Shown here in pieces: positions 9,034 to 57,354 of a stretch of 64,000 nucleotides of DNA. Numbering within the stretch: position 1 is the first letter of the stretch; the number at the start of each line of letters is the position of its first letter. Source of the DNA: a bacterium (GTDB lineage: Bacteria; Patescibacteriota; Minisyncoccia; UBA6257; UBA9933). A program made the translations under genes and the position numbers. The notes beneath the pieces are model-generated. The model was not told the origin of the DNA, searched no databases, and was given only the letters and a program-made list of their open reading frames with translations. The stretch lies in contig JAJYHZ010000002.1 in the NCBI GenBank assembly GCA_021796335.1, forward strand, positions 100,516 to 164,515, read 5' to 3'.

Positions 9034-11562
9034 TTATGAAAGCGCCGCGGCGGAATCGGTAAATTTTATTTCATTATTTTCTAATTTCAACAAGACTGAT
9101 TTTCCTTTATTTATTTCTCCGCGGAGAATTTTGTCGGCCAAAACGCTTTTGATTTTATCCGAAACAACTCCGCGCAAAGGCCTGGCTCCGAAAACCGGAT
9201 CATAGCCGATTCGGGCGACGTAATTTACCAATTCATCATTGAATTGTAAATTTATCCCCTGGTTTTCTTCCAAAGTTTTTACGAGATTATCCAGTTGAAG
9301 ACGCGCGATTTGAACCGTGTCTTCGATGGACAAATTTTTAAAAATAATAACATCGGAAAATCGGTTAAGCAACTCGGGTTTGAAAGACGCGGTGAGTTTC
9401 TTTTTGAAATCCTCCTTGATTTCCGAAATAGACTTTCCTTGTTCCAGCTGATCTTTTATGTAATCAGAATTGGCGTTGGAAGTGGCGATGATAATGGTAT
9501 TTTTGAAATCGACAACGCGGCCGGAGTTGTCTGTTAGGCGGCCGTCATCGAAAACCTGAAGAAATAGGTTCAGAACATCGGAATTGGCTTTTTCAAATTC
9601 ATCCAGAAGAATGAGGCAGTACGGTTTTTGAATGACGGCCTCGGTCAAGCTTCCCGTAACTTTCCCGTCCGGAGAGCCGATGAAGCGGAAAACGCTTTGT
9701 TTATCCTGATATTCGGACATATCGAACCTGATCATGGCGTCGAATGAACCGAATTGAGTTTTAGCCAAAGTTTTGGCCAATTCGGTTTTACCGACTCCGG
9801 TAGGACCGACGAATAAAAACGCAGCGATCGGCCCGGACGAACGGCCCAATCCGCTGCGGTATTCACGCAAAGATCCGGAAACCGCTTTTACCGCTTCTTC
9901 CTGATCGATTAAATCTTCATGAATGACGTTTTCTAAATTCAACAATTTTTCCGCTTCTTCCCGGGTTGTTTTATGAATGGGAATGTTAACCTTTCTTTCG
10001 CTGACGGCAATTATATGGTCGGACTTCAGAACATTATCGCCTTTTTGAGTGGCATAAGCCAAAGCTTCTTTTAGTAGATCCTCGGCGCTGGAAGGCAGCA
10101 ATTTTCGCCTAAAATACTTATGAGCCAAAACAACGGCCTGCTTAATCGCCTCAAAGCTGATAATCACTTTGTATTGGTTTTCGAGAAGCAAACTGTCGTA
10201 AGCCAAGAACCGGATTGATTCGTCTTCGGAAAGTTCATCCACTTTAATCACATCGAACGCATTCATGAAATCGCTGCGCGGTTCAATATCCTGCTTAAAA
10301 TCCCTGTAATAAGCGGAGCCGACCACGGAAAAAGCATCAGTCTTTATAGCCGGCAATATTATATCGGCGGCGTTCATGTAATGATCGCCGGAAGTGCGCA
10401 CCAGGTTATAAATGTCTGGGATGAATAAAATGACATTGCCCGCAGTCATGATTTCATCGATAACTTTATTGACTCTTCTTGAAACTTCCTGAGGATCGGC
10501 GTTTGATATCAGGCTGCTTATTTGGAGACCGACCAAGCGTTTATCAAACAGCGCTTCCGGAATTTCATCGCGAACGATTTCCGACGCCAAATGATGGACC
10601 AAAGCATCCGAACCGCTGCCCGGATCGCCGACCAGCAACACATTCGGCCGCGTCGGACGGGAAAGGACATCAACCATTTGTTTATATTCTTTTTCGTGGC
10701 CAACCAGAAATCCGGTTTTTCTGTCTCTGGCCAAATCGGTAAAATCAATACTAAAGCTGTCAAGAACGGGGGTAGGGCGCGCCGTCCAGGACCGGTTCAT
10801 AATGCGATGTCGATTTTTCGGAGAAATGACAAACCCGCCGATGGTTTCGGGCAGTTTGGAAATCCAGGTTTTGTATCGATAACGGCTGAAAATAAGCGCT
10901 TTATTCAAATCGTCGGCGTCGATGGAGAACATATAAAAAATCTTTTTGACGCTTTCGCCGCCGATATGTCCCAGCGAGGAAAAAATATGGCTGACATCTA
11001 TGTAATCGGAATTTTCGAAAAAGGCCTCAAGAAAAGCATTCTTGATTAAAAGGCTTGTTTTTTCAAATACTTGTTTTTGATTTTCTTTTATTTCTTTTCT
11101 TGATTTTGAAATTTCTTCGTCTAATTTCTGCTCAAATTCCTCAGGGGAAACTTCGAGACGCCAGAGAGCCCCTCTTATGCCTTTGTTTTTCATTAAGAGT
11201 TGCATCAGATTAAGATGGAAATCGCCACCGACTATAATCGTTCTGTCATAAGATTTTTCGATGGTGTGAAAAACCCGCGGCAGCAAATAATCCATCGCAT
11301 CGGCGCCGCTAATCGTTTCTTGGTTAAGTTCATTTAGAGAGTGCAACGGTTTGTTCAAGTGTATGAATCGATTGGCTAAAAACAAAAGAAATAACGCGCC
11401 CACCCATTTAAGCCAAATAATTTCGAAAGCGACGAATAAAACGGAGGCTATCGCAAAAATGATATAAAAGGAAAAATAAATCAGGCGCCACAAAAATCGC
11501 AAAAAAGGCGAAAATTCAAGGCGCGGCTCAGAAAAATAAATTTTGTTTAAATCCATACTCAT
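9034..11562 (-). CDS. ClpB/ClpC-like AAA+ ATPase with N-terminal transmembrane anchor and degenerate first AAA module
   Basis: D2 module is intact (FVGPTGVGKTELAKTLA, LILLDEFEKA, GARPLRGVV). In D1 the P-loop reads GDPGSGSD where GxPGVGKT is expected, and the Walker B reads LFIPDI. The N-terminus has two hydrophobic helices instead of a Clp N-domain. Confidence 0.8.
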   Translation of the reverse strand: MSMDLNKIYFSEPRLEFSPFLRFLWRLIYFSFYIIFAIASVLFVAFEIIWLKWVGALFLLFLANRFIHLNKPLHSLNELNQETISGADAMDYLLPRVFHTIEKSYDRTIIVGGDFHLNLMQLLMKNKGIRGALWRLEVSPEEFEQKLDEEISKSRKEIKENQKQVFEKTSLLIKNAFLEAFFENSDYIDVSHIFSSLGHIGGESVKKIFYMFSIDADDLNKALIFSRYRYKTWISKLPETIGGFVISPKNRHRIMNRSWTARPTPVLDSFSIDFTDLARDRKTGFLVGHEKEYKQMVDVLSRPTRPNVLLVGDPGSGSDALVHHLASEIVRDEIPEALFDKRLVGLQISSLISNADPQEVSRRVNKVIDEIMTAGNVILFIPDIYNLVRTSGDHYMNAADIILPAIKTDAFSVVGSAYYRDFKQDIEPRSDFMNAFDVIKVDELSEDESIRFLAYDSLLLENQYKVIISFEAIKQAVVLAHKYFRRKLLPSSAEDLLKEALAYATQKGDNVLKSDHIIAVSERKVNIPIHKTTREEAEKLLNLENVIHEDLIDQEEAVKAVSGSLREYRSGLGRSSGPIAAFLFVGPTGVGKTELAKTLAKTQFGSFDAMIRFDMSEYQDKQSVFRFIGSPDGKVTGSLTEAVIQKPYCLILLDEFEKANSDVLNLFLQVFDDGRLTDNSGRVVDFKNTIIIATSNANSDYIKDQLEQGKSISEIKEDFKKKLTASFKPELLNRFSDVIIFKNLSIEDTVQIARLQLDNLVKTLEENQGINLQFNDELVNYVARIGYDPVFGARPLRGVVSDKIKSVLADKILRGEINKGKSVLLKLENNEIKFTDSAAALS

Positions 11563-11575
11563 TACTAATGAAAAA

Positions 11576-11956
11576 TTAGATTCCTATTTTAAAAATATTC
11601 ACAACCGGATTGTAATCTATTATTTTGAAAATTATATAAAGGGGAATCGCCGCCCAGATGATGAACATTGCGGCGGCGATGATAATAACGAACAGATAAA
11701 TTATCCCGCCGATCATTAGCCGTAAAGAACGAAATACAAAACCCAGAACATACCCTATTATGCTGTGATCCTGATAAAGAGGCTTAAAAAGGAAACGCCA
11801 AGTTATTTTAAGGGCAAAAATTTTGTCCAAACTTTCCAAAAGAATCAAAGTCCTGTGAGCGTGAAAAATAAATCCGCGCAAATACCACTGCCGGATAAAT
11901 TCAGAAATCCGGAAAATAAAACGATTGAAAGCAAAAATAATGAAATCACCAAGCAT
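11576..11956 (-). CDS. hypothetical small membrane protein
   Basis: 126 aa with 3 predicted TM segments. First gene of the operon that continues into the Clp-like ATPase. Confidence 0.45.
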   Translation of the reverse strand: MLGDFIIFAFNRFIFRISEFIRQWYLRGFIFHAHRTLILLESLDKIFALKITWRFLFKPLYQDHSIIGYVLGFVFRSLRLMIGGIIYLFVIIIAAAMFIIWAAIPLYIIFKIIDYNPVVNIFKIGI

Positions 11957-12096: not shown

Positions 12097-12141
12097 AATC
12101 AAATTTTGAGCGATCGCTCAAAATTTGATTGGTTATCCACA
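12097..12141 (+). repeat. dispersed 45-bp element: 34-bp perfect palindrome plus DnaA box (copy 1)
   Basis: AATCAAATTTTGAGCGATCGCTCAAAATTTGATT at 12097-12130, then GG, then TTATCCACA at 12133-12141. Confidence 0.9.
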
Positions 12142-29470: not shown

Positions 29471-29705
29471 TGAAAAGTATATGAGGTGCGAAAAATATTT
29501 TCAAATATCTTCAGATAAATTTCAATACCAAAAACATAAAGAAGAGGGCGGAAGTTGGAAAGAAAAATCTCAGTCTGATATTTTACGCCTGTCTGCCGGC
29601 AGGCAGAATCGTCAAATATTAGATTAGTTATCCACATTTGACTGATTATCCACAACTGCGCAGCGAAACTACTTAGAAAACCGCCCCGCCAAGCGGGACG
29701 GTTTT

Positions 29706-30005: not shown

Positions 30006-31127
30006 ATGAAAAAATTTACTTTAAATCTCATGCGGTTTTTTTATAAAAACGGGCTAAGGCCTGCTATTTTTTTGTTTGATCCGGAAAAAATACATGACAT
30101 AACACTAAAGTTCGGTAAAATTTTGGGCACACTGCATTTTAAAAATATATGGAGTCCTCTTTTTAACACAAAAAATAAAATCCTGGAGCAAGAAATATTG
30201 GGAATAAAGTTTGCAAATCCGGTAGGGCTGGCCGCAGGATATGATAAAAATGCCGAGCTCACTCAATTACTGGGAAGCTTGGGTTTCGGATTTGAGGAAG
30301 TCGGGTCTATTTCAAACCTGCCATGCTCCGGCAATCCCAAGCCAAGATTATGGCGCCTGCCGAAATCAAGGGGAATTATCGTTTGGAACGGGCTAATGAA
30401 TAAGGGCGCGAAAACTTTGCATGAAAAACTTGATAAACTGAAATTCGACATACCGGTCGGCGTAAGTATCGTTAAAACAAATTCTCCGGAGATCACGGAG
30501 CTCAATGAAGCTGTTCCGGATGTTATCAGCGCACTGAAAATATTTTCGAATTTCGGCGACTATATCACTTTAAATATTTCCTGCCCAAACACAGCCGGAG
30601 ACGGTCTTTTTTACAATCCTAAAAATTTAAAAATCTTGCTTTCACGAATCAGCGAATTGAAATTAAAACAACCGATTTTCATAAAACTACCTCCAGACTT
30701 AAATATAAAAAATGTCGATGAAATTATCGATTTGGCAAGAGAATACAAAATAAGCGGGTTTGTCTTGAGCAATATAGTTAAGCGCAGAGATTTGATGGAT
30801 GCCGATAAGGACGAGCTTAAAATGGTTGATCCCGGAAGAGGAAGTATGTCGGGTAAACCCGTGGAGAAATTATCAAATGAATTAATAAGCTATGTTTATA
30901 AAAAAACCAAAGGAGAATTTGTAATTATCGGCTGCGGAGGAGTTTTCTCCGCTAAGGACGCTTATAAAAAAATAAGGGCAGGAGCGTCTTTGATACAATT
31001 GATAACCGGACTGATTTTTGAAGGGCCGCAATTGGTTGCTCAAATAAATTCGGGGCTTGTTGAACTTTTGAAAAAGGACGGTTTCTCGAATATTTCCCAG
31101 GCCATAGGAGCGGATTCGCGAAACTGA
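30006..31127 (+). CDS. pyrD: dihydroorotate dehydrogenase, class 2 (quinone-dependent)
   Basis: GIKFANPVGLAAGYDKNAE and GFGFEEVGSI motifs. N-terminal membrane-association segment typical of class 2. Confidence 0.85.
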   Translation: MKKFTLNLMRFFYKNGLRPAIFLFDPEKIHDITLKFGKILGTLHFKNIWSPLFNTKNKILEQEILGIKFANPVGLAAGYDKNAELTQLLGSLGFGFEEVGSISNLPCSGNPKPRLWRLPKSRGIIVWNGLMNKGAKTLHEKLDKLKFDIPVGVSIVKTNSPEITELNEAVPDVISALKIFSNFGDYITLNISCPNTAGDGLFYNPKNLKILLSRISELKLKQPIFIKLPPDLNIKNVDEIIDLAREYKISGFVLSNIVKRRDLMDADKDELKMVDPGRGSMSGKPVEKLSNELISYVYKKTKGEFVIIGCGGVFSAKDAYKKIRAGASLIQLITGLIFEGPQLVAQINSGLVELLKKDGFSNISQAIGADSRN

Positions 31128-31140
31128 AAGAGCCCCGATG

Positions 31141-31270
31141 TGGGATTTTCCCTCGGCTGAATACCAAGTGGGTTGGCTCAATCCGCCGAATATTGGCGAA
31201 TGCTTTTGCCTTCCCTTAAAATTCGTATTGACCCGAGAATCACTATCGAGGCTCATTATAATTATAACAA
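31141..31270 (+). repeat. conserved ~130-bp non-coding element, copy A
   Basis: Homologous to 31483..31612 at about 75% identity by eye. Shared blocks GGATTTTCCCTCGGCTGAATACCAAGTGGGT, AATGCTTTT, TTGACCCGAGAATCACT, ATAATTATAA. Confidence 0.7.
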
Positions 31271-31332
31271 GAAAGACTTGCGCGATATATGCCGATATAT
31301 TTCTGACCTAGAATTTATATCTCGATCTTCCT

Positions 31333-31377
31333 AATCAAATTTTGCGCGATCGCGCAAAATTTGATTGGTTATCCACA
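31333..31377 (+). repeat. palindrome plus DnaA box element (copy 2, GCGCGATCGCGC variant)
   Basis: AATCAAATTTTGCGCGATCGCGCAAAATTTGATT at 31333-31366, then GG, then TTATCCACA at 31369-31377. Both arms changed together (GAG to GCG, CTC to CGC), keeping the palindrome perfect. Confidence 0.9.
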
Positions 31378-31439
31378 TAACATAAATCCAAACAATTTCT
31401 TAAACCTTATAAAAATTTAGATAAATCCTTTCAAAATAA

Positions 31440-31472
31440 AAAAAATCCGACGCGAGGTCGGGATCTTTTTGG
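31440..31472 (+). terminator. intrinsic terminator AAAAAAATCCGACGCGAGGTCGGGATCTTTTT
   Basis: CCGAC..GTCGG stem followed by a T-run on the + strand, separating the two module copies. Confidence 0.55.
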
Positions 31473-31482
31473 AACCCTGAGG

Positions 31483-31612
31483 TTGGATTATCCCGGCTAA
31501 TACCAGGTGGGTGAGCTCAATTGCAATCCGCAGACTGCAATGCTTTTACTCTCCCAATTAATCCATTATTGATCCGAGTATCACTCTCAGGTGTCCAATA
31601 TAATTATAAAAA
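31483..31612 (+). repeat. conserved ~130-bp non-coding element, copy B
   Basis: See copy A. The closing helix shows a compensatory change: CCTGAG..CTCAGG here versus CCTCG..CGAGG in copy A. Confidence 0.7.
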
Positions 31613-31648
31613 ATTAAAAATAAAATTCAATACCGAAAAAATCTATAG

Positions 31649-31687
31649 ATTTTGAGCGATCGCTCAAAATTTGATTGGTTATCCACA
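31649..31687 (+). repeat. palindrome plus DnaA box element (copy 3, left arm decayed)
   Basis: ATTTTGAGCGATCGCTCAAAAT core at 31649-31670, then TTGATTGG, then TTATCCACA at 31679-31687. Confidence 0.85.
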
Positions 31688-31779
31688 TTAATCATTAATA
31701 TTGTATATGTATTTTAAAATATTTTGGAAAAAAAGGGGAGCTTGAGAGCTCCCTTTGGGGGTGAGGCGGCGCGTCTGCG

Positions 31780-32145
31780 TTAGAGCCGCAGAATCGTCGC
31801 CGGGGTTTCGTAGGCCGCGTCGATCGGGCCGTGGACCATGGCGTCCTGAGCGCCGCCGCGTACGTTTGCGTAAAAACAAGAGGTCGTCTTCTGCTGGGCG
31901 GTTGCGGGTCGGAGTGCGGTCGTTACGCCTTCATAAATTGCCGCATCGCTGGCCTTCGCCACCACTATCTCGCTCTTCTGGTAATTGGTCGTCTTAAAGG
32001 TGTTTTCGAGCGCGGTGGACCCTCTCGTCGCCGTTGCGAGGACCTTGCCGTGCCCGGGCGCTGTTGCCGGGGCCGTCGTTGCTGCCAGGGTTGTCGCAAA
32101 AAAGATCAAGAAGATGAGTCCAAGTCCGGTGATTGCCTTTTTCAT
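31780..32145 (-). CDS. hypothetical secreted protein in a GC-rich patch
   Basis: Signal peptide MKKAITGLGLIFLIFFATTLAA, Ala/Thr-rich. The locus is much more GC-rich than its flanks. The three overlapping + ORFs are GC artefacts. Confidence 0.5.
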   Translation of the reverse strand: MKKAITGLGLIFLIFFATTLAATTAPATAPGHGKVLATATRGSTALENTFKTTNYQKSEIVVAKASDAAIYEGVTTALRPATAQQKTTSCFYANVRGGAQDAMVHGPIDAAYETPATILRL

Positions 32146-38051: not shown

Positions 38052-38096
38052 AATCAAATTTTGAGCGATCGCTCAAAATTTGATTGGATATCCACA
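38052..38096 (+). repeat. palindrome plus DnaA-box element (copy 4, box variant ATATCCACA)
   Basis: AATCAAATTTTGAGCGATCGCTCAAAATTTGATT at 38052-38085, then GG, then ATATCCACA at 38088-38096. It lies about 50 bp upstream of the cobO start. Confidence 0.9.
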
Positions 38097-56080: not shown

Positions 56081-56114
56081 AATCAAATTTTGAGCGATCG
56101 CTCAAAATTTGATT
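56081..56114 (+). repeat. 34-bp palindrome element (copy 5, no DnaA box)
   Basis: AATCAAATTTTGAGCGATCGCTCAAAATTTGATT at 56081-56114, then TCATATTTT instead of GGTTATCCACA. It lies between the tRNA-Leu 3' end and the recombinase stop. Confidence 0.9.
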
Positions 56115-56130
56115 TCATATTTTTAGAAAG

Positions 56131-57036
56131 CTAACTTCTCCTGCGAGCGTGAAAAGTCTTGTGAATTTCTTTCAACTCTTTATTAGTTAAATGCGTATAA
56201 ATCTGCGTCGTTGAAATATTAGAATGACCAAGCAGTTCTTGCACCGAACGCAAGTCAGCTCCGTTGATTAAAAGATCGGTAGCAAAGGAATGACGCAATA
56301 AATGCGGATGAACTTTTTTTGAAATGCCGGCCTTGCGGGAATAGAAATCAACCAGGCGCTGGATTGCGCGCGGAATAATCCGGCCGATGACTTTCGGGCT
56401 TTTCGCCTTGGTCAAACTTATAAACAACGCTTCTTCGGCATCAGAGCGCTTATCTAAATACTCTCTGATAAATTTTTTGGCGCGATCGGAAAGAAACACA
56501 ACCCGCAACTTACTCCCCTTTCCGCGGACACTTAGTTCTCCTCTTTCCAAATCAAAATAACGATTTAAACTGCAAAGTTCTGAAACGCGCAGCCCGGTGG
56601 AAAACAATAATTCCAAAATTGCCTTATCGCGGAGAGATTTCAAATCATCTCCATTCGGAGAACTCAGCAATCTTTCAAGTTCATCATATTCAATAGTTTC
56701 TATTTGGCGCGTCGGAATTTTTGGAAGCTCGATTTTATCCGGCGATAAAGTTGAAAAATCATTTTTATTTAGATATTTCAGAAAATTTCTTATGGCAATA
56801 ATGTAATAACTTTGCGTTGTCTTTTTAAACGATTCACCTTCAATATTTTCAAGCCGGGCAAGATAGATCCGGAAATCGCGAATTTTATCTATTGCAATAT
56901 CCGATTCATTTTTAATATTCCCAAACTCAAAAAATTTTTTTAAATATCTTTCGTAATTAGCCCGGGTTTTAGGCGAGCGATTTTTTTCAATTTCCAAGTA
57001 GTCCAAATAGTTTTTAAGAAGACGGTTTATTTCCAT
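56131..57036 (-). CDS. xerD: XerC/XerD-type tyrosine recombinase
   Basis: N-terminal LDYLEIEKNRSPKTRANYERYLKKF and C-terminal HPHLLRHSFATDLLINGADLRSVQELLGHSNISTTQIYTHL (R..HxxR..Y). Start taken at MEINRLL; the longer track ORF reads through a parS-like inverted repeat. Confidence 0.8.
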   Translation of the reverse strand: MEINRLLKNYLDYLEIEKNRSPKTRANYERYLKKFFEFGNIKNESDIAIDKIRDFRIYLARLENIEGESFKKTTQSYYIIAIRNFLKYLNKNDFSTLSPDKIELPKIPTRQIETIEYDELERLLSSPNGDDLKSLRDKAILELLFSTGLRVSELCSLNRYFDLERGELSVRGKGSKLRVVFLSDRAKKFIREYLDKRSDAEEALFISLTKAKSPKVIGRIIPRAIQRLVDFYSRKAGISKKVHPHLLRHSFATDLLINGADLRSVQELLGHSNISTTQIYTHLTNKELKEIHKTFHARRRS

Positions 57037-57176
57037 TAGGATAATCATACAATAATCTGTCGCAAAATAAAATGTTTCACGAATTATGTGAAACATTTTT
57101 CCCATAGTTTCCCCAATTAGTATCAGTTCTAATTAAATAGGCATTTTAGAGGTATTTTAGCAAAAACGGCAAAACC

Positions 57177-57185
57177 TGTGGATAA
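57177..57185 (-). promoter_or_regulatory. perfect DnaA box (TGTGGATAA, TTATCCACA on the minus strand)
   Basis: Exact 9-mer consensus. A weaker GGGGGATAA follows at 57197-57205. It lies in the AT-rich non-coding region with the parS array. Confidence 0.6.
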
Positions 57186-57354
57186 TTAGGCAAAGTGGGG
57201 GATAACTCGGTCAAAATGAGGTAGTTTGCCAGATTTTAGAAATGAATTTCTCTTCATGAAATCTATCTACTTTTGTAGATAGCTATAAACTAATTCAAGT
57301 TCGTGAAATTTAGCTATTATGAGTTGTTTTTCCCCCAAAAATAATCTATTCAAA

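Follow-up and report, generated by a model that had tools for sequence, protein, structure and literature searches.

Evidence for a duplicated gene encoding a small structured RNA downstream of pyrD in a Patescibacteria genome

The RNA genes in the gap downstream of pyrD

We analyzed a 64,000-nt stretch of contig JAJYHZ010000002.1, referred to throughout as the window, in which the 652 bp between the stop codon of pyrD (31127) and the stop codon of the next gene (31780) are non-coding. A preliminary description of this gap, made from the sequence alone, had proposed that it holds two diverged copies of an element of ~130 nt, each accompanied by a palindrome and a DnaA box, and that these represent a duplicated small RNA gene or riboregulator rather than junk. 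Homologs in other genomes, covariation, promoters and terminators strongly support a duplicated gene for a small structured RNA, and we are highly confident that what lies in the gap are duplicated genes of one structured RNA family, encoded on the minus strand. The two small RNA (sRNA) genes and the signals assigned to them are as follows.

31130..31254, minus strand: sRNA copy A, ~125 nt (covariance model 105.9 bits, E 2.7e-23)
31261..31269, minus strand: extended –10 element of copy A, TGTTATAAT (TGnTATAAT), read from the sequence and by script
31437..31461, minus strand: intrinsic terminator of copy B with stem CCGAC/GUCGG and U8 tail (terminator scan)
31472..31595, minus strand: sRNA copy B, ~124 nt (covariance model 120 bits, E 7.5e-27)
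31603..31630, minus strand: sigma-70 promoter of copy B, TTGAAT, 16-nt spacer, TATAAT (promoter scan 10/12)

The covariance model behind these scores, R1, was built from the 12 distinct sequences that make up the family as we define it below, and it gave exactly two matches in the 64-kb window, at 31130–31254 and 31472–31595, both on the minus strand. A scan for the elements outside the gap had been suggested in the preliminary description; within the window there are thus only these two copies, and the further homologs are found in relatives. Copy B comprises a closing helix (P1), an invariant centre, an arm formed by P4 and P5, and a hairpin (Pd). Copy A is the most divergent member of the family, with the lowest model score, and retains all of the helices. 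The two copies are 64% identical in a MAFFT alignment, with indels of 1–6 nt that are not multiples of three, and they are no closer to one another than either is to orthologs in other genomes. From the low identity, we concluded that either the duplication is old or copy A is evolving fast; since every helix in copy A has been kept through compensatory changes, this copy is still under selection for structure.

Both copies are preceded by promoter sequences on the minus strand. The –10 box of copy B ends 7 nt ahead of the RNA 5′ end, which is probably G31596 or G31595, while the extended –10 element of copy A, which has no good –35 box, ends 6 nt ahead of the 5′ end. This placement changes two earlier assignments: the shared block ATAATTATAA, formerly counted as part of the element itself, is the minus-strand –10 box (TATAAT), and in place of the plus-strand starts expected near 31135 and 31478, the predicted starts are at ~31254 and ~31596 on the minus strand.

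The terminator that had been placed between the two units does exist, as a G+C-rich hairpin with T runs at 31446–31462, but its strand had to be reassigned: the minus-strand tail is T8, the plus-strand one only TCTTTTT, and the hairpin ends RNA B. Because a run of As lies upstream of it, the terminator is bidirectional, and it probably also ends read-through from pyrD on the plus strand. We saw no convincing pyrD terminator on the plus strand of 31128–31472 ahead of this hairpin. As the hairpin is the first good plus-strand stop signal, copy A is antisense to the likely 3′ untranslated region (UTR) of pyrD, and pyrD mRNA probably runs antisense through copy A, which would give a fully complementary RNA pair. 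Copy A has no terminator hairpin of its own, and its P1 is followed by UUUCAGUUU.

Homologs, covariation and strand

We used pyrD as a synteny anchor in the search for homologs and fetched five pyrD loci from relatives, some of them labelled Wolfebacteria or Patescibacteria, whose PyrD proteins are 57–66% identical. A hidden Markov model (HMM) built from copies A and B alone found one homolog in each of the five loci (E 1e-17 to 1e-23), immediately downstream of pyrD and on the opposite strand; together with the MAFFT alignment, this bears out the homology first noted between the two elements. A second pattern, built from seven sequences, was run on metagenome contigs and matched 13, of which 12 were true members. 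The resulting family set consists of 12 distinct sequences, namely A, B and ten others from Patescibacteria/Parcubacteria metagenome contigs, and these ten are single homologs that are mostly convergent with pyrD, as in the window. The covariance model gave a single match in each relative locus, whereas 14 chance-match loci (13 matches from a genome scan plus one further locus, L034) yielded none. That genome scan, for which the pattern from A and B alone was run on genome contigs, had returned 13 matches in unrelated phyla, and we rejected these as chance: the covariance model found nothing in them, and the best nhmmer E was ~1e-4. Neither the RNA nor the 45-nt repeat described in the next section was found in the viral contigs scanned, and the RNA was absent from distant pyrD loci (≤56% identity, other gene contexts).

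The homologs have a common anatomy, in which a –35/–10 promoter (often TGnTATAAT) is followed by an RNA of ~124 nt that begins with 5′-GAGC, with the –10 box 6–7 nt before the 5′ end in all members. The RNA is followed by a hairpin and U-tract terminator in 8 of the 12 distinct members, while the others have a U-rich tract after P1; the terminators frequently have an upstream A-tract, and so are bidirectional and common to the RNA and the convergent pyrD. No gene lies downstream of the RNA in 9 of the 12. In one sub-group (L027, L030, L031, L033, L035 and L036), the RNA is found between the gene for an 862-aa protein and rpmB, and not by pyrD. Here 35 nt separate the RNA from rpmB (ribosomal protein L28), which follows it on the same strand (e.g., L031 1091–1432); P1 is succeeded only by a U-rich tract, without a hairpin terminator. 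We also observed that in L021 (~10275–10395, minus strand of that locus), a stretch of ~75 nt shortly before the –35 box of the RNA promoter is enclosed by an inverted repeat of ~14–15 nt, CCCCGTTAGAGTTG / CAACTCTAACGGGG, a different lineage-specific element at the place where the window has the palindrome repeat.

Covariation supported the structure. In the R1 alignment, 94.1% of pair cells were canonical, compared with 34–58% when the partners were slid, and two-sided changes occurred in 20 of the 38 pairs; the observed values were reached by none of 500 shuffles. The compensatory substitutions therefore go beyond the controls, and the covariance-model search of relatives that the preliminary description had called for yielded both homologs and helix-supporting covariation. 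P1, a 10-bp helix that pairs the ends of the RNA, had two-sided changes in 7 of 10 pairs; P4 (GGG.GGAC/GUCC.CCC) had them in 3 of 7; and P5, capped by UUCG or GNRA in most members, had them in all 8 pairs. Covariation thus proves P1, P4 and P5, and RNAalifold, run on an unfitted MAFFT alignment, independently recovered P1, P4, P5 and Pd. The compensatory change in the closing helix that had been described earlier was confirmed, in that P1 covaries both between A and B and across the family, although the helices named as its basis fared differently: CCTGAG/CTCAGG in copy B is the real P1, while CCTCG/CGAGG in copy A pairs non-homologous segments, the real P1 of copy A being formed by 31130–31139 with 31245–31254. 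On inspection by eye, readings of the internal loops as K-turn, sarcin-ricin or T-loop motifs did not fit the consensus in any case.

The strand could be settled as minus because the alignment contains 68 G-U cells and 2 A-C cells on this strand, and because 94.1% of cells are paired on it compared with only 79.6% for the reverse complement. The fold z-score of copy B was –4.2 on the minus strand versus –1.5 on the plus strand. The UUCG and GNRA loops, like the promoters and terminators of the homologs, also speak for the minus strand. These results bear on a different account of the locus, in which a plus-strand element in the pyrD 3′ UTR would form a composite module with the palindrome and DnaA box, or the gap would be a replication origin or a DnaA-controlled locus. 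The element does lie directly downstream of pyrD in most genomes, and perfect DnaA boxes do stand beside both copies; however, on the plus strand the 68 G-U cells become A-C mismatches and the fold is weak, the promoters and terminators of the homologs are on the opposite strand, one sub-group is not adjacent to pyrD, and the palindrome and DnaA box are absent in relatives. A replication origin was rejected separately, since cumulative GC skew falls monotonically across the window and neither dnaA nor dnaN is among the called genes within ~10 kb; furthermore, the gap has two DnaA boxes, each inside a dispersed repeat, rather than the cluster of an oriC. We therefore regard this account as highly improbable.

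Translation of the gap is likewise not indicated. No reading frame is open across all homologs, several of which have stops in all six frames, in agreement with the earlier view that the gap is non-coding. Two small open reading frames, 31138–31311 on the plus strand and 30882–31256 on the minus strand, were considered as coding and rejected, as no frame is conserved and the indels are not multiples of three.

Fourfold scanning of the window and the five loci with Rfam 15 (4227 families) gave no match at gathering thresholds and none that was consistent at E ≤ 10. The models for signal recognition particle (SRP) RNA, 5S rRNA, tmRNA and RNase P RNA did not match even at E ≤ 10, and the apical arm P5 varies in sequence and loop, unlike SRP helix 8. 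A literature search on non-coding RNAs of the candidate phyla radiation (CPR)/Patescibacteria, on 6S RNA and on ribosomal-protein leaders found nothing matching or relevant. Apparently, then, this is a previously uncatalogued RNA family of Patescibacteria, from Parcubacteria/Wolfebacteria-like CPR bacteria of groundwater. In its covariation, conserved junction nucleotides and restricted phylogenetic range, it resembles the raiA, OLE and HEARO motifs from the surveys of Breaker and Weinberg, from which it differs in being smaller than most, CPR-specific and without a sequence or structure match among the Rfam families.

The palindromic repeat and neighboring genes

The palindrome and the DnaA box TTATCCACA reported beside each RNA copy were both found. 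They belong to a 45-nt repeat unit in which the 34-nt perfect palindrome AATCAAATTTTGCGCGATCGCGCAAAATTTGATT is followed by GG and by the DnaA-box consensus; the minus-strand sequence of the unit is TGTGGATAACCAATCAAATTTTGAGCGATCGCTCAAAATTTGATT. Five near-identical copies with sharp borders and unrelated flanks occur in the window.

12097..12141, plus strand: 45-nt repeat copy upstream of the minus-strand gene 11576–11956
31333..31377, plus strand: 45-nt repeat copy ~80 nt upstream of RNA A
31649..31687, plus strand: repeat copy ~50 nt upstream of the start of RNA B
38052..38096, plus strand: 45-nt repeat copy with DnaA box ATATCCACA, ~40 nt upstream of the start of a CobA/CobO/BtuR-family (cobalamin adenosyltransferase) gene
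56081..56114, plus strand: 34-nt palindrome copy without a DnaA box, flanked by a tRNA gene and the 3′ end of gene 56131–57105

The copy at 31333–31377 has a symmetric C/G change that retains the palindrome, while that at 31649–31687 has a diverged promoter-proximal arm and keeps a 22-nt perfect palindrome. The four copies with a DnaA box share one orientation and sit between an upstream terminator and the next minus-strand promoter or start codon; the fifth lies just after a gene 3′ end. The covariance model found no RNA element beside the copy at 12097–12141. Contigs of the same species were the only ones found to carry the repeat, which is lacking from every RNA locus of the relatives. Because it is absent from those loci, and also stands at three unrelated sites in the window, the repeat is not part of the RNA module, and the composite module of the preliminary description does not hold.

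A dispersed palindrome is marked by several intergenic copies that are almost identical, sharply bordered and able to form hairpins, as is the case here, and the repeat is a lineage-specific dispersed element that is REP-like (repetitive extragenic palindromic) with a HIP1-like core. It shares with REP and BIME (bacterial interspersed mosaic element) palindromes and with the cyanobacterial HIP1 octamer (highly iterated palindrome 1, GCGATCGC) a short, near-identical, intergenic palindromic unit and a symmetric double change that keeps the palindrome, and with HIP1 in particular the core octamer. It differs from all three in its 45-nt unit, its fused DnaA-box consensus and the single orientation of the copies with a DnaA box. 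The core octamer occurs five times in the window versus 1.1 expected, always inside the repeat, so that, unlike HIP1, it is not over-represented outside it in these 64 kb. The repeat may be a protein-binding site for DnaA together with a dimeric factor.

This raises the idea that, in this species only, the repeat would couple both RNA promoters to DnaA or to a palindrome-binding regulator as a lineage-specific add-on. The position of the four DnaA-box copies between a terminator and the next minus-strand promoter or start codon would fit such a coupling, as would the related TGTGGATAAYNARTC motifs that stand in tandem at the start of an HD-domain gene and at 57177. The spacing to the RNA start differs between the two copies (~80 versus ~50 nt), one copy has no DnaA box and lies at a gene 3′ end, and near-identical, sharp-bordered copies resemble a dispersed repeat more than evolved operators, and we consider the coupling quite unlikely.

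The extended DnaA-box-like motif TGTGGATAAYNARTC has seven matches in the window versus 1.5 expected, and tandem pairs with a spacing of ~18–20 nt are found at 29622–29654 and 57177–57210. The HD-domain/YfbR-like gene that adjoins pyrD, from a family of 5′-deoxynucleotidases, has one of these pairs across its start codon. The pairs may reflect DnaA-linked control of nucleotide-metabolism genes, as ndk, pyrD and the HD-domain YfbR-like gene are clustered here.

The genes on either side of the gap are as follows.

30006..31127, plus strand: pyrD, quinone-dependent dihydroorotate dehydrogenase, convergent with both RNA genes
31736–31753, minus strand: terminator of the 121-aa secreted-protein gene (region 31736..32145)
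31780–32145, minus strand: gene for a 121-aa predicted secreted protein, G+C-rich, upstream neighbor of the RNA genes

The G+C content of the 121-aa gene is visibly above that of its surroundings, and ndk is the next gene beyond it. A small predicted secreted-protein gene lies directly upstream of the RNA gene in three lineages (the window, L026 5964–6344 and L029 2555–2971), and a comparison of these three proteins detected no similarity outside the signal peptide. The 121-aa protein and pyrD were matched in Patescibacteria GCA_021836325.1 and in groundwater assemblies from ENA, and the gap is identical in other contigs of the same species. Among the same-species assemblies, the 3′ ends of two contigs (L002 and L004) are at or near the DnaA-box/palindrome repeat, and that of a third (L005) is inside RNA copy B. 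Such end points in independent assemblies suggest that the repeats caused the fragmentation and that further copies exist in the genome.

The invariant centre and the possible role of the RNA

Across the 12 sequences, 46 columns are invariant, and these are spread over junctions, internal loops and helices, mostly in the centre of the molecule. They include the segments AGUGAU.CUCGG..CA on the 5′ side, GGGA, UUGAG, ACCCAC.UGG, and CCG.GA.AAUCC on the 3′ side. The nearly invariant centre contains AGUGAUUCUCGGAUCA, GGAUU, CYUGG and CCGRGAUAAUCC, and it can form two mutually exclusive folds that are conserved to the same degree, each 94–95% paired. Fold I is a three-way junction composed of P2 (UGAUU/GAUCA), Pb (GGAUUAU/AUAAUCC), which closes the junction, and Pd (CYUGGU/GCCGRG). 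In fold II, continuous pairing between the 5′ and 3′ stretches (GU/AC, GAUU/AAUC and CUCGG/CCGRG), together with that of AUCAAG and CYUGGU, gives a rod. For Pd, which shows C-G, U-A and U-G variants, pairing reaches 100%; P3 and Pb are each about 76–77% paired, and the pairs of fold II are invariant. Predicted energies usually favor fold I by 3–7 kcal/mol, with fold II about equal or favored in L020, L026 and copy A. Invariance of residues that have two partners is what a switching RNA would look like.

Because the RNA has been kept across genomes whose PyrD proteins are 57–66% identical, with 46 invariant positions and two conserved folds, an important cellular role is indicated. As expected of a trans-encoded sRNA gene, the promoter and the defined 3′ end of each copy are independent of the flanking open reading frames. 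The best explanation of the whole, which we consider likely, is that of two paralogous, independently transcribed minus-strand RNA genes whose product has a role in trans through a partner-binding core. A separate sigma-70 promoter lies 6–7 nt before the 5′-GAGC of each gene, and the RNA ends in the 10-bp P1, followed directly in most genomes by an intrinsic, often bidirectional terminator that is shared with pyrD. The RNA would act in trans as a stable folded molecule, with the invariant core as the recognition surface for a partner that we judge likelier to be a protein than an mRNA, and the two folds may serve as a functional switch that exposes or hides this surface. As a mechanism drawn from sequence, partner binding with switching is a reading we hold as possible though rather doubtful. 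Since the invariant nucleotides are spread over junctions and loops, we tentatively, and with slightly less reserve, favor a protein or ligand partner over pure seed pairing.

The main competitor is a classical trans-encoded base-pairing sRNA, in which the invariant 5′ stretch GUGAUUCUCGGAUCA would be the seed, the remainder would be scaffold and terminator, and the tandem copies would be paralogs of the familiar kind. That the gene stands alone, between a promoter and an intrinsic terminator, fits this idea, as do the tandem arrangement of the paralogs and the fact that the 11-nt invariant stretch is single-stranded or weakly paired in fold I. OmrA/OmrB, PrrF1/PrrF2 and AbcR1/AbcR2 are comparable in consisting of two diverged head-to-tail copies with their own promoters and a short identical block, but here, unlike in those pairs, conservation across genera takes in the entire fold as well as many nucleotides outside the seed. 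Indeed, the 46 invariant positions reach beyond any seed in a manner more typical of ligand- or protein-binding RNAs, the stretch can be fully sequestered in fold II, and complements of it in the window number 14 versus 14.4 expected, in a sample (64 kb) that is too small to decide. On balance, we consider pure base pairing rather unlikely.

We also compared the RNA with 6S RNA (SsrS, Rfam RF00013), since a miniature 6S-like RNA that binds the RNA polymerase holoenzyme could be laid out with P1 as the closing stem, the centre as an open-promoter-like bubble with GAUAAU on its 3′ strand, and P4–P5 as the terminal stem, while the alternative fold would imitate the rearrangement by which 6S RNA is released. 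Like 6S RNA, the new RNA is stand-alone, strongly promoted and presumably stable, with paired 5′ and 3′ ends, a conserved interior that can re-pair, giving two conserved folds, and a variable distal arm; its Pd hairpin lies on the 3′ side of the centre, and copy B has a weak match to the Rfam 6S model on the correct strand (15.2 bits). This score is far under the gathering threshold of 46.4 bits; copy A has no match, and neither do the loci of the four relatives scanned, at E ≤ 10. 6S RNAs are typically ~180 nt long (roughly 150–200 nt), whereas the new RNA has 124 nt and a closing stem of 10 bp, and the unpaired region of its rod fold is a one-sided bulge rather than a two-sided central bubble. 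We consider a 6S-like function very unlikely.

A similarly low probability attaches to a ribozyme or an orphan riboswitch-like sRNA that senses a ligand, in which the core would be the binding pocket or active site and the folds its on and off states. Invariant junction and loop nucleotides, covarying helices and exclusive pairings are the pattern of a riboswitch aptamer, but most of the distinct homologs have no gene downstream, and none of the riboswitch or ribozyme classes of Rfam 15 matched. The placement is not that of a cis-acting riboswitch, in that 8 of the 12 homologs end in a hairpin terminator facing the 3′ end of pyrD, and rpmB is preceded by the RNA in one sub-group only. No expression platform is evident, because P1 forms in either fold and the terminator stands apart from the segments that would switch.

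Several points weigh against the trans-acting, partner-binding RNA that we prefer. The central pairings are without variation, so covariation is silent on fold I versus fold II; it cannot pick between them because the residues with two partners do not vary. The structural alignment behind the pair counts was fitted to model R1, and the covariation set comprises 12 distinct sequences from one clade. In the rpmB sub-group, a role in cis or co-transcription with rpmB is possible. Finally, the invariant single-stranded stretch and the tandem paralogy fit a base-pairing sRNA equally well.

CPR/Patescibacteria have tiny genomes, are almost entirely uncultivated, and their regulation is poorly understood. 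A bolder version of the switch, to which we give little credence, would make the RNA either a small CPR-specific equivalent of 6S RNA, titrating RNA polymerase, or an sRNA, gated by a ligand or a protein, with an invariant 5′ stretch that would be exposed in the three-way-junction fold and sequestered in the rod fold. If true, such a bistable switch would represent a housekeeping riboregulator of a new class, used by ultra-small bacteria that depend on a host. The DnaA-box palindrome, as a genome-wide repeat, matters for annotation and assembly, and the RNA itself is a well-supported candidate family for Rfam that offers metatranscriptomic and in vitro biochemical work on the CPR a concrete target.

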